DNA of 64,000 bases from Eledone cirrhosa (lineage: Eukaryota). The stretch lies in the NCBI GenBank assembly GCA_964016885.1, contig OZ024742.1, forward strand, positions 349,432,001 to 349,496,000, given 5' to 3'. Below the pieces are notes generated by a model. The model had not been told where the DNA came from. It made no database searches and saw nothing but the letters and a program-made list of their open reading frames with translations. This document shows positions 19,205 through 38,302 of the stretch, one piece after another. The position numbers and the translations under genes are program-made. Numbering within the stretch: the stretch's first letter is position 1; the number at the start of each line of letters is the position of its first letter.

Positions 19205-19600
19205 ATTAGAATTGGTGCTCTGAAATAGCGATGTATATTTGAATGTATATATAGTATACTTGGCAATACACTGTATGCTTAATTAAAAGCATTTTGAAGA
19301 CCTGACGCTATTGTTTAAAGTAGTGACTATGTCACTTACTTCTTTTTTCAAGAAACAAAGGGAGATAAGCTGACAGATCTCTGTTTCATACTCTTGGTAT
19401 TCCTCAGACAAACAAGGGGAGTGCTAAGCTCTGAGGAATACCAAGAGTATGAAACAGAGATCTGACAGCTTATCTCCCTTTGTTTCTTGAAAAAAAGAAG
19501 TAAGTGACATAGTTACTACTTTAAAACAATAGCGTAAGGTCTTCAAAATGCTTTTAATTAAGCATACAGTGTATTACCAAATACACTATATATACATTCA
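19205..19600. mobile_element. (TA)n-flanked foldback element with hammerhead motif (arms ~19240-19408 / 19430-19600)
   Basis: ~170-bp inverted arms with a few substitutions; TA runs at both ends. Confidence 0.9.
19425..19472 (+). ncRNA. Type I hammerhead ribozyme motif (cleavage triplet mutated to GAC in this arm)
   Basis: TAAGCT-CTGAGGA-ATAC caaga GTAT-GAAA-CAGAGATCTG-AC-AGCTTA. The opposite arm retains GTC, and stem I extends (AAACAAGGGGAG / CTCCCTTTGTTT) past a bulge. Confidence 0.8.
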
Positions 19601-20135
19601 TATATATATATATATATATAAGGTAAGTTATTCCGGGTTGAATCGGAAGTAACCACAGTAAGTAAGGTACTCAATACATAGCAGAGTATTAAAGTTTTAA
19701 TATAGATGAGATTCTACAGGACTAGAACTGTTTCATTCTTTAGAAATCATCGGGAATCTATATATTTAAATATATCTAAACGTACCAAGGATCTCACACA
19801 TTTTCCTTTCTTGAAGACAGATATTTATATCTGTCTTCAGTCGTCAGAATGAATAACATGGAATGTTTATTAAATATTAGATTTGAAAACAAAATTTAGA
19901 ACATTTGAAAGTGAGGCTGAAATCAAATAACGGGTAAAAAATTGGAGGGAAAAAATATATAAATAAATATCTAGAACATAAACATACACACACACAAATA
20001 CACGCTTATACGTAATAGTACTTAGACATATACATTCTCACATAAGTGTATTTGCGTCTACATGGAAATACGAACAGACACATATAAACGTGTGATCATT
20101 TGCTCACACACGCGCACACACAGGCGCACACTCAC

Positions 20136-20315
20136 GGAAATGTGGTAAGGAACCAGGTGGACCATAACGCACCAAAGTACTCAATACTTGAGGTAGTAGA
20201 GTGGGTAATAGGAACCAGTAAGACCCCGACAGCTGAGCTCAAGCCGTTTCGACGGCTAATTGAATTAGCCGTCGAAACGGCTTGAGCTCAGCTGTCGGGG
20301 TCTTACTGGTTCCTA
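20136..20315 (-). mobile_element. ~190-bp hairpin-ended (TA)n element, copy 2
   Basis: Same family tail; near-perfect hairpin at ~20209-20315. Confidence 0.85.
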
Positions 20316-21217
20316 TATATATATATATATATATATATATATATAAATATATATATATATATGCATACATATATATATATATACATATATATATATATAT
20401 ATACACACACACACATATATATAAATACACATACATACAAACATACACAAAAGTCTCTATACATACACGCACGTATATATACATACACACATATATACAC
20501 ACACATTTACACATAGATATCTATATATTTATATATGCACATACATATATTAATATGTTCAAGCCATTGGGAAGTATATATATATTCATTTATATGTTAG
20601 GTAATTCCGAAGGAAAAGCAAAGGAAAAAAGAGTGCTCTATGTACAGAACAGAGCTATTTAATTAGAAAGTGAACAACACAAAATATAACTACTCCATTA
20701 CCAAAGGTTTCTGGATCCCAGACAATAATAATATACATCTGGATCGGTCCAGAAAACATATATATATAAACATATATATAAACATATAATAGATAATATT
20801 AAATTTTATTTGAAAAAAAACAACAACATATTTTTCACAGAACTTGGTTCCTTCTGAATCCACTTTTAGAAACACTGCTCTGCGATATTCATCTCGTCTC
20901 GTGACCAGTGCTTAAATAGATACTTGTAAACTACCACAAATAATAAATCATATCTTTGACATGTATACACGTGTAAGGTAAGGTACATCTACTTCGGTAA
21001 TTACATTGAAGTCTATACTTTGTAGAGGACGTCTAATGAAACTGAACTGAATTGGGAGTTATCTCTCTTACATCATTTAAATGATTAGAATAATATTGTT
21101 ATACTTTCGGAGGGTCATGCTGCCAATACAAACACACACACCTGTTGGTATTCACTTCAATTTATTACATATTTCCAGTTGGTTGGTTTAATAACCGGAC
21201 TGTCAAAGTTATTTATT

Positions 21218-21260
21218 GTCAAAGTTCTTTCGTCACTCACTCTGTGACCTCCTCAGTGAC
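21218..21260 (-). ncRNA. Minimal type I hammerhead ribozyme motif
   Basis: Minus strand: GTCA-CTGAGGA-g-GTCAC agagtga GTGAC-GAAA-GAAC-TT-TGAC, followed by AATAAA. One extra nucleotide precedes stem II. Confidence 0.6.
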
Positions 21261-21934
21261 TAATTTGTTATTTTGTGTCTCTCCCAAAGTATAACAATAT
21301 CTGTTTCAACACACGTTTTCAGAGAAGAAATCTTGCTAAAGAAATACAAAACAAAATAATATTAGTCATTGAGGTCATGTTTTTTTCCCCTCAACATCTA
21401 ATCATGTTTTTAATGCTCATTACATTGATTTGTTATTACCAACTTAAAAAGTTAAAGAGATACAAACATCTGTCTAACAATATTTTCCCCTAACCAAATT
21501 CAGTTACATTTTCTTTCTAGTCAGAAAAATACAGTTTTAGAAATTAACTATAAAGAAATGCATCTCAATTTCCGGAGATAACTGACTGTTAGCCTGTCAT
21601 CCCTTCGTTATCATTGTTGTTGTTGTGTAGCCGTAGGTGAATCTAGATCGAAATGACATCTGATTAAAGCCATGTCTAGCTCGGACAATCTCAATGTATC
21701 GATGTCTACATTATATACATTATGTAATAAACTTCTCGAAGTCAAGAAACTTGGCTGCAATTTATTTAAAACATATCTTTTAGTACATCAGCAACCAGCA
21801 TGTCTAATGTAACAATTCATATTTGTTTAAACACCATAATGTATTTGAAGGAACTTCGCTGCGGTATTTTCGGTTGCAAAAGAGAGAAGCTTCTTAACTA
21901 TGGAGAGAATTCGATCATGATTACGATACACAAA

Positions 21935-36104: not shown

Positions 36105-36530
36105 AGGTGCATATGTTACTCTGGTTAATACTTAGAATTTGCATCACCAGTCTGGAACACCTATCTTGCTCAGAACATTGACCGCCTCGAAACTGTTCAG
36201 AGACGTGCAAACAAGCAAGTACCCTCCATCAGGCATCTACCATACTCTGAACGCCTTGCTTCCCTGGGCATGGATACATTGAAGCTCCGACGTCTGGCAA
36301 CTAACTTGTTAAACACCCACAAAATTATTAACCATCTTGCCAACAACAACCCTGAGTACCTTTTTGATTTCCATGTGTCTAACACACATGGATATGCCTA
36401 CAAAGTCAGAAAACAGCACAGTTCCCATGATTTTCGGAAACATTTTTTTACGCTGAGTTGCTGAAGCATGGAACAAACTACCTGCATCAGATGTTAGCTG
36501 CCGAGACACTGCATTCTTTAAAACTTCTAT
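36105..36530 (+). pseudogene. CR1-clade LINE ORF2 C-terminal fragment
   Basis: Reads LEFASPVWNTYLAQNIDRLETVQRRANK...LPYSERLASLGMDTLKLRR...FRKHFF, then AWNKLP after a frameshift; these are typical CR1 motifs. Confidence 0.85.
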
Positions 36531-36719
36531 GGAATAAACGTTGACCTCGGTGGTATTAGAAAGCGCAGAGTGTCAGAGTGACTACCACAAAGTTGACCTC
36601 GGTGGTATTAGAGAGCGCAGAGTGTCAGAGTGGCTACCACAAAGTATTCTATCCCATGTTCTGACCATTCTACCAATTCTCCTCCTTTAATACGCTTTGA
36701 ATTACTTGGAATACTTTAT

Positions 36720-37060
36720 TACTTTTTCACGTAACATGTTTTCCATTTCGAAATCCATCTTTCTGATGTTTTGAATTTTATATCTTTCAAACTTGAGCTA
36801 GACTTCCTGATTACGGAATGGGAATGTTTGCTTACTACTTCAAGTAGTGTGTTGATATTTCTTTTCAACTCCTTATCACCGTTAATTGTACAGTTCTCTG
36901 TTATTTCCCACCCACATTCAACGAATTTCAATCGTTGAAAATTACTATTCATCAAATTGCTTTCATAGCGCCCTCTAAAAGTCGTGATTTATTTGTAGTT
37001 TAAGATCCAGTTTTTTTCCCTTTTACTTTACATCGCCAGGCTTGGCATCTTTCTGCATTA
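36720..37060 (-). pseudogene. Possible decayed pogo/Tigger transposase N-terminal (CENP-B-type HTH) remnant
   Basis: NCTINGD...FKTSERWISKWK resembles the IPISG...FKASxGWLxxFK motif; the match is weak. Confidence 0.35.
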
Positions 37061-37475
37061 ACTAGTATTTAATGCTTTCTAGTTCTTAATACATTAGCAA
37101 CAGCTACTGTAATCCTCAGTTTTTTTTACTGCTTCCAAATTCATTGGATCAAGCTGTTTGACTGATTCACTTATCTCAGCAGATAAAAGACTGTTCGTTT
37201 TCTTTCATGACTTCCTATATAAAGTAGGACAGATACACACGAAAGACGATTGATTTTATGATATTTGCATGTTAGAAGACAGAACTGCTGCTTGCCAAGA
37301 CATCTGTTACATGTAGGGTAGACGAGAATATACCGTTGTAAAAAACAAAAGAAACAACGATTTTGGTGTTTTAAAATATTCTGATATTTTTGAAAGTTTC
37401 TCAAATCTTACTTTTTTATGAACAGCTTTCTACCGATTTTATAAATATATATATATATATATATATATATATATA

Positions 37476-38302
37476 TATAATAAAAGTATGTATCTTTACA
37501 TGTAATTAATACACATAGGGACACAAGTATAGTCCGACCATATGCCAGTGTGGTTCAATGGTAAGTTAATAAATTAACAAGCCAGAACATATAAATTCAA
37601 GGGAGTGTAAACACAGAAAATATCTTAAAAAATAAAAAATAATTAAATTTAAAAAAATTCACTGTACTTACTATATGTGCCCTTACCGCGGTTTCAGATC
37701 CCAAACAAATAGATAATCCAAGCGGATTTCCATTGAGAAAGAAATCATCGTCAGAAGGCTTTTCTCTCTCGGAGAATATAAAATTCCCGAGTTAAAATTG
37801 CAAACTGGCGCCACACCAAACTGCCACAGAATGAGACCGAATGAATGATGAAACAGTTATGGTATAGTACCGTATGCAAAGGCAAAAAGCACGGTAATTA
37901 CATGTAGGGATACATACTTTTATTATTATTCTCCCCAACGGTAGAGAAACCTTTGGTCGTTTGAATAGCTGCTATTTTTCGTAACATTAGATTGACCTGT
38001 CCACCGTGCTTTTTGCCTTTGCACACGGTATTATACCACAACTGTTTCATCATTCATTCGCTCTCATTCTGGAGCAGTTTGGTGTGGCGCCAGTTTGTAA
38101 TTTTAACTCGGGTATTTTATATTCTCCGAGAGAGAAAAGCCTTCTGACGATGATCTCTTTCTCAATAGAAATCCGCTTGGATTATCTATTTGTTTGTGAT
38201 CTGAAACCGCGGTAATGGCACATATAGTAAGTACAGTGAAATTTTTGGAATTTAATTATTTATTATTTTTAAAGATATTTTCTGTGTTTACACTCCCTTG
38301 AA
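37476..38302. mobile_element. (TA)n-flanked foldback element (arms ~37595-37895 / 38003-38302) with nested second inversion
   Basis: ~300-bp diverged arms; 37896-37926 is the reverse complement of 37477-37507. Confidence 0.9.
37679..37759 (-). ncRNA. Type I hammerhead motif; mirror copy at 38139-38219 (+)
   Basis: Minus strand: GCCTT-CTGACGA-tGATTTC...GGGATCt-GAAA-CCGCGG-TA-AGGGC; palindromic stem III ACCGCGGT. Confidence 0.75.

Follow-up and report, generated by a model that had tools for sequence, protein, structure and literature searches.

The window analysed here, a 64,000-nucleotide stretch of Eledone cirrhosa DNA (assembly GCA_964016885.1, contig OZ024742.1, positions 349,432,001 to 349,496,000), contains six foldbacks (F1 to F6) between its positions 19205 and 38302. 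These foldbacks are probably insertions of the hammerhead-bearing 3' ends of Penelope-like elements (PLEs), several of them non-autonomous units of the retrozyme type, made by double priming at (TA)n. Their structure is the already published PLE-type head-to-head insertion with a tail, formed here in part from retrozyme-like units, and the loci are new members of that type. The original prediction treated the structure as new and missed both the hammerheads and the PLE identity; its central idea, retrotransposition primed on each of the two strands of a (TA)n target that is its own complement, is supported by the present data, being largely right and near the published PLE picture.

Self-comparison and arm alignments placed the foldbacks at 19206–19600 (F1), 23108–24058 (F2), 26002–27912 (F3), 30500–30862 (F4), 31105–31892 (F5), and 37480–38302 (F6), with arms of about 130 to 690 nt. 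Substitutions between the two arms amount to 3.6, 1.4, 0.9, 10.7, 1.2, and 5.7%, respectively, and the arms also differ by indels; the pooled substitutions (24 transitions and 27 transversions) have a spectrum that is uninformative as to whether the structures are artefacts. One arm outruns the other in every foldback, by 35, 184, 105, 80, 110, and 116 nt from F1 to F6, which bears out the asymmetry reported in the original prediction; this one-sided extension is referred to as the tail. TA runs adjoin both ends of all six, at the left end of F5 via a short GA run, and the four junctions singled out earlier (CATTCA/TA at 19600, CGAAT/AT at 24060, TTTCA/TA at 31893, and TTGAA/TA at 38302) were all recovered at those positions. 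The arms include no host flank, and in the F1–F6 alignments no tail was found past the TA run of the short end. BLAST among ten elements gave a single weak cross-family link, between F2 and an element at 49.5 kb (E 0.005); the six foldbacks represent separate families.

The nature of the arms was revealed by hammerhead ribozymes. A scan with a type-I hammerhead descriptor gave 14 matches in 15820–56520, whereas none of 40 local shuffles gave more than one and the reversed sequence gave none. In 11 of the 12 arms of F1–F6, the strand running outward from the centre carries a CYGANGA core and, downstream of it, GAAA; the twelfth, the left arm of F4, is truncated within the hammerhead core. Since the hammerheads read from the centre outward, each foldback corresponds to two 5'-truncated copies in head-to-head orientation, each having its 3' end at (TA)n. 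Rfam independently matched five hammerheads of a tandem array described below (HH9, E 1.6e-6, 38.9 bits). The Rfam search of 18700–20000 left the F1 hammerheads undetected and returned a weak HH9 match (E 0.17) for F0, a foldback just outside the interval, together with chance matches to miRNA hairpins.

Individually, the foldbacks vary in how the ribozyme and the spacer are shared between the arms. F1 opens with its 35-nt tail (19206–19240, − strand), which abuts the (TA)n of 19190–19206. The F1 hammerhead is split: the left, tailed arm (19241–19408, −; core 19407) holds the only GUC cleavage triplet and is without the 5' strand of stem I, and stem I occurs only on the right, where the spacer (19409–19429) carries that 5' strand and is therefore part of the tail-less arm (spacer and arm 19409–19600, +; core 19431; triplet GAC; (TA)n from 19600). 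In F2, a 184-nt tail (23108–23291, −), whose extent is taken from the next TA run, precedes arms at 23292–23659 (−; core 23529) and 23691–24058 (+; core 23821), and the 31-nt spacer holds a 16-nt duplication. F3 consists of a tail-less arm (26002–26686, −) and a second arm (27126–27807, +) with minimal hammerheads at 26101 (−) and 27708 (+), a spacer of about 440 nt whose ownership is uncertain, and a 105-nt tail (27808–27912, +) with strong hairpins (z −3.9). Inspection of this spacer by eye suggested a GIY-YIG-like stretch, which a protein search did not confirm. Folding beat shuffles clearly (z below −3) in only three of nine tails.

The left, tail-less arm of F4 (30500–30632, −) ends inside the core, and the spacer and right arm (30633–30782, +; core 30650; 8-bp stem I) lead into an 80-nt tail (30783–30862, +). 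F5 combines a tailed arm (31105–31650, −; tail 31105–31214; core 31347) with a tail-less arm (31648–31892, +; core 31756), and F6 a tailed arm (37480–37895, −; 116-nt tail 37480–37595; core 37754) with a spacer and tail-less arm (37896–38302, +; core 38144). F0 (18630–19190, both strands) is a head-to-head relative of the array family, in which a long tail-less arm carries a hammerhead (core 18935, −) and an inverted arm (19081–19190, +) bears a 58-nt tail. One arm is cut at or inside the hammerhead core in F1 (19408) and F4 (30632), and the 350-nt units of the array are cut in stem II; these truncations suggest that the reverse transcriptase (RT) stalls at the ribozyme fold.

Tandem units were found at 32196–35198 (−), where a 465-nt unit and truncated 350-nt units form an array with five hammerheads and a tail-less 3' end at the (TA)n of 32176–32197. 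The units follow the order 465-350-465-350-465-465 plus partial ends, and an inverted 296-nt copy of the unit, carrying a 67-nt tail, lies at 35211–35506 (+). Two consecutive full units (34195–35123) each contain a complete type-I hammerhead and no open reading frame (ORF), in keeping with the retrozyme hallmark of at least two such consecutive units. The left arm of F5 is one 528-nt unit plus about 17 nt of terminal redundancy, the terminal ~31 nt of the F6 tail recur at the start of the F6 spacer (unit ~495 nt), and the final 18 nt of the F0 tail likewise recur where the left arm of F0 has its 5' end. F0, F5, and F6 are monomers with terminal redundancy only, and such redundancy is absent in F1–F4, four of the six foldbacks. 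The units and the redundancy together suggest that F0, F5, F6, and the array come from tandem or circular, non-coding templates with one ribozyme per unit. Judged from their sequences, these four loci are likely retrozyme-like non-autonomous PLE derivatives with units of ~465–530 nt. The multimeric or circular templates postulated in the original prediction are consequently supported by F0, F5, F6, and the array. At all four loci where it can be read (F0, F5, F6, and the array), the longer cDNA halts 17–45 nt past the tail-end site; the probabilities of a stop within 45 nt, 0.005 to 0.00005, assume exponential truncation and are indicative only. As a separate observation, the first base of the array's inverted arm (35211 versus 32894) lies some 5 nt to the 3' side of the cut predicted for the ribozyme, which would fit a self-cleaved RNA as template; this is a single case.

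Two further features, fixed ends and variable centres, were recognized in family X, which has seven copies in the window: X16 (16359–16530, a short foldback with an 80-nt tail), X20 (20136–20316, with a 76-nt tail and arms that differ at 0 of 53 positions), X25 (25909–25971, +, a solo tail-less arm between two TA runs), X32 (32008–32177), X38 (38393–38589), X39 (39299–39493, inverted, 98% identical to X38 and probably its local duplicate), and X50 (50554–50757). The short end is common to all seven, and the tail measures 76–80 nt in each of the six tailed copies. The centres differ between copies and are located in a short self-complementary zone. Both arms of one copy share subfamily variants, and the sequence nearest to a short arm is its own long arm in X16 and X20, a tie in X50, and second on a short overlap in X32; X38 and X39 pair with each other, sharing arm-specific differences. 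F0 and the array are 72–77% identical in their longer matches; when these matches are extrapolated, the two ends of one coincide with those of the other, near unit positions 98 and 29. As the end sites are fixed across copies, random later deletion is unlikely to have produced them. The two fixed end sites correspond to the pair of RT start sites by which the PLE tail is defined (PMC11167929; literature statements here and below refer to the sections of each source that were covered). Nested local inverted duplications at 38232–39503 hold two more 70–80-nt copies of the F6 short end as well as X38 and X39 among long TA runs.

At the short ends, the template overlaps the (TA)n exactly by 1, 4, 2, 4, 4, and 2 nt in F1–F6, by 2 nt in the array, and by 3 nt in family X. 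Summed over these eight ends, the overlap is 22 nt, compared with 7.2 nt expected for random break points within the same elements (p~0.0008), and the four short ends absent from the original prediction give 11 nt versus 3.2 nt expected (p~0.005). The short end at 19600 has an overlap of 1 nt with six of eight bases matching, and that at 38302 has 2 nt with seven of eight. Among three long ends with known continuation, the overlap is 3 nt in two, and the third could not be anchored. This outcome supports the coincidence of short-arm ends with TA microhomology that had been put forward for testing. The picture of a short arm merging with the microsatellite at an internal AT/TA run is overstated, the exact overlap being 1–4 nt. 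The related idea that annealing at any internal TA run causes the asymmetry is not supported in that form, both end sites being fixed (seven of seven X copies, and F0 at the array positions); longer internal TA runs of the elements, up to 8–9 nt, are not used as ends.

Whether a foldback reflects one or two cDNAs can be judged from the spacer. A single cDNA that folds back must be the tailed arm, with the unpaired centre as its own 5' continuation. The spacers of F4 and F5 belong to the tailed arm, as snap-back predicts. In F1, the spacer provides stem I of the tail-less arm; in F6 as well as F0, the tail-less arm is the one with the long 5' part, and it covers just 18–31 nt of the tail. Neither arm of F0, F1, or F6 can therefore be the sole template of the other, and two reverse transcripts (or an antisense RNA) would be needed. 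By this reading of the sequences, the three loci support double priming over snap-back of one cDNA; the argument is drawn from these three, F2 and F3 giving no call.

For the insertions as a group, a PLE protein with RT and GIY-YIG domains, encoded elsewhere, would act in trans on the element RNA. Its endonuclease would nick both strands of a (TA)n tract, and each nicked 3' end would prime reverse transcription, one at a distal start site and one at a proximal start site 35–180 nt upstream, with 1–4 nt of TA pairing assisting each priming. Nicking and extension of both strands, as well as the two start sites, are taken from the literature. Both cDNAs would end early, their 3' ends would be joined by 0–2 nt of microhomology or a self-complementary stem, and repair would yield a head-to-head palindrome that is tailed on one side. 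What was observed in this analysis is the geometry of the foldbacks, the orientation of their hammerheads, the fixed ends and the variable centres, the tandem or redundant nature of units, and the TA overlap; the PLE clade that supplies the enzyme, the origin of both cDNAs in one event, and the manner of their joining are presumed. A more specific and tentative version, which we regard as somewhat unlikely, is that a dimeric PLE protein inserts retrozyme RNA, each subunit priming one (TA)n strand at one of the two sites flanking a structured tail; on a circular or multimeric template, the longer cDNA would round the unit and stop 17–45 nt beyond the tail-end site, within the tail hairpin or shortly after it.

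Assignment to PLEs is consistent with three observations: the copies are 5'-truncated and arranged in partial tandem and/or head to head, a tail of 35–184 nt extends at one end between two fixed start sites, and the terminal repeat contains a type-I (minimal) hammerhead. Endonuclease-positive (EN+) PLEs (Penelope/Poseidon, Neptune, and Naiad) likewise show 5'-truncated copies placed head to head, partial tandems next to which an inverted copy lies, an extension at one end only, (TA)n targets with an unreadable target-site duplication (TSD), and a type-I hammerhead near the 3' end. Inverted pseudo-long terminal repeats (pLTRs), one of which has a 31-bp tail at its 3' end, and mostly head-to-head junctions have been described (PMC3846280), and an inverted pLTR with a 30–40-bp tail at one end is reported for all EN+ PLE clades, along with a (TA)n bias in Naiads, a microsatellite bias in Neptune, and TSDs that are often unreadable (PMC8557442). 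Dual minimal hammerheads on opposite strands, 100–700 bp apart, are also on record (PMC4209133). Unlike EN+ PLEs, four families here have a long stem II region (51–86 nt), and Naiads, the PLE clade linked to (TA)n, are described in the covered sections as being without canonical hammerheads, in contrast to the present foldbacks. The repeats of Octopus vulgaris include Penelope families, and the covered sections of that report leave hammerheads unmentioned (PMC13282606).

Purified PAc, the Poseidon protein of Anolis carolinensis, nicks AT-rich DNA on both strands and extends each of them; its RT has two internal start sites that bound the tail, uncleaved RNA is its main substrate, and a dimer is predicted (PMC11167929). 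The foldbacks agree with PAc in the cutting and extension of both strands, in two start sites bounding the tail, in a stem-loop at the start region, and in an uncleaved RNA template, most arms here containing the whole ribozyme. The inverted product seen here is not modelled in the sections of the PAc report covered. Animal retrozymes have been defined and tied to PLE pLTRs, with the mechanism left open (PMC7229834; bioRxiv 10.64898/2026.07.22.740005). The metazoan non-LTR retrozymes of these two sources resemble our loci in that they are non-coding and consist of GC-poor tandem units, each a few hundred nt long and bearing a single type-I hammerhead, and they have been proposed to be non-autonomous PLE derivatives; unlike our loci, they are not described in the covered sections as having inverted arms, tails, or (TA)n targeting. 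Within the literature covered, no description was found of tails or inverted arms on retrozymes or of the spacer-ownership argument, which the 2005–2006 PLE reviews, Repbase entries, and supplements may cover.

Several observations weigh against assigning the foldbacks to PLEs and retrozymes in the manner proposed. The HH9 score of 38.9 bits is below the gathering score of 52, and a strict scan passes only five of the 12 arms (both of F3, the right arms of F4 and F5, and the left arm of F6), or four of the six foldbacks. The ribozyme of F2 is the weakest, with a variant CCGATGA core, an 86-nt stem II region, and a stem I of three contiguous pairs, and family X is without the CUGANGA half of the core. 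Tails are mostly longer than those of EN+ PLEs (35–184 versus 30–40 nt), and for the single-copy F1–F4 their lengths follow from the assumption that the tail reaches the next TA run, the extent being independently confirmed only for F0, F5, F6, the array, and family X. The start site of PAc is not homologous to the cut DNA, whereas the 1–4 nt overlap with (TA)n here is above chance. The arm-specific differences shared by X38 and X39 suggest that a finished foldback can also be copied whole. Pfam searches of 18 frames (one arm per foldback, F1–F6) gave no RT or GIY-YIG domain, only chance-level matches (E 0.035–0.69), and phmmer with one F3 frame against 1.84 billion proteins gave only one low-complexity match. 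No PLE ORF, with telomerase-like RT and GIY-YIG, was recognized by eye among the 23 ORFs of at least 120 aa in the window. In this respect the foldbacks are unlike EN+ PLEs, and they would accordingly not be autonomous PLEs but act like PLE derivatives.

Of the alternatives, we consider unlikely that the same PLE machinery primed once and the second arm arose by self-priming, through cDNA snap-back or the copying of an antisense transcript, although self-priming on an antisense template is the explanation given for the junction palindromes of rotifer Penelopes (PMC3846280). The self-complementary zone at the centres of family X and the tailed-arm spacers of F4 and F5 would fit such a course, and the multimeric array, having a tail internally, could template its own inverted arm. 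The tail-less arms of F0, F1, F6, and X16 nevertheless have extra 5' sequence yet are without the tail of the other arm, a combination that the antisense-RNA version could still accommodate. It is very unlikely that single-arm insertions were later made palindromic or trimmed by repair at TA-fragile sites, whether by foldback inversion or by deletion from an internal TA to the flanking tract. The overlap of the short ends with TA and the nested inverted duplications around the F6 short end and X38/X39 are what such repair might leave, but the end sites recur in all seven X copies and in the diverged F0 and array, internal TA runs of up to 8–9 nt went unused, and neither host flank in the F1–F6 arms nor a tail beyond the short-end TA run was seen.

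Inverted arms with TA flanks could equally call to mind miniature inverted-repeat transposable elements (MITEs) or foldback DNA transposons that duplicate a TA target. We find this origin highly improbable, since the outer ends are asymmetric in all six foldbacks rather than mutual terminal inverted repeats, family X has fixed ends with variable centres and a solo arm (X25), the two arms share subfamily variants, and hammerheads are present; identical ends and centres, which the original prediction would have taken as a sign of MITEs, were not encountered. An assembly or read-chimera artefact seems just as improbable: inverted PLE structures are known to trouble assemblers (PMC8557442), but the arms differ by 0.9–10.7% with indels, and the ends are family-specific and conserved across copies.

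In L1 twin priming, one RNA is copied from both target strands, the 5' ends are joined by microhomology, and the product is an inversion with a poly(A) end. The foldbacks would share with it cDNA primed from both target strands, the joining by microhomology, and the inversion itself. The L1 pieces are non-overlapping, whereas the two arms of a foldback are copies of one region that overlap over their full length and have (TA)n at their ends, with no poly(A) tail seen, so that the original prediction was right to set L1 twin priming aside.

The window as a whole is filled with AT-rich eukaryotic repeat DNA, in which microsatellites and pieces of mobile elements lie between two satellites that bound the region, a 39-bp array (1–15820, 406 copies) and a 61-bp array (56522–64000, 123 copies). 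An insertion at 19621–19900 (−), whose 3' end is at the TA run 19600–19620, contains a pair of hammerheads separated by about 95 nt (cores 19847 and 19753); it shares the right TA tract of F1, and a related 44-nt piece (27938–27981) adjoins the TA run of F3. The highest-scoring hammerhead of the scan (core 49581) belongs to an element at 49345–49732 (+), with a 33-bp triple repeat before it and a short TA run after it, just 3' of the end of an apparently intact two-ORF long interspersed nuclear element (LINE; 43911–49106, +; ORFs of 574 and 1156 aa). Relatives of this LINE, which we take to be L1/Tx1-like, bear RT and endonuclease domains, and an inverted decayed relative, 82% identical, lies 2.5 kb away (51779–53614, −). 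A decayed 3' piece at 36040–36520, judged by eye, is a candidate remnant of a CR1/L2-type RT. An older duplicated element (28040–29750) between TA/GA runs contains an imperfect inverted repeat (28320–28713) and no hammerhead match, and a dispersed repeat resembling a short interspersed nuclear element has copies at 21914–22622, 41818–42297, and 54858–55073 that are 68–82% identical.

How PLEs build tandem and inverted insertions (PMC8557442) and how animal retrozymes are mobilised (bioRxiv 10.64898/2026.07.22.740005) are still open questions, according to the sections of these sources covered. The ownership of the spacer, by the tailed or the tail-less arm, provides a simple genome-wide test between double priming and snap-back, and the present loci add signs that suggest short TA homology at the start sites and a stop of the long cDNA at the tail hairpin. 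For annotators, such palindromes should be read as retroelement footprints, not as MITEs or miRNA hairpins. If insertion by a dimeric protein from a circular or multimeric template is true and general, these loci would be direct genomic evidence for the way in which animal retrozymes move, and for the joining of two cDNAs, not antisense self-priming, as the origin of the head-to-head palindromes of PLEs.

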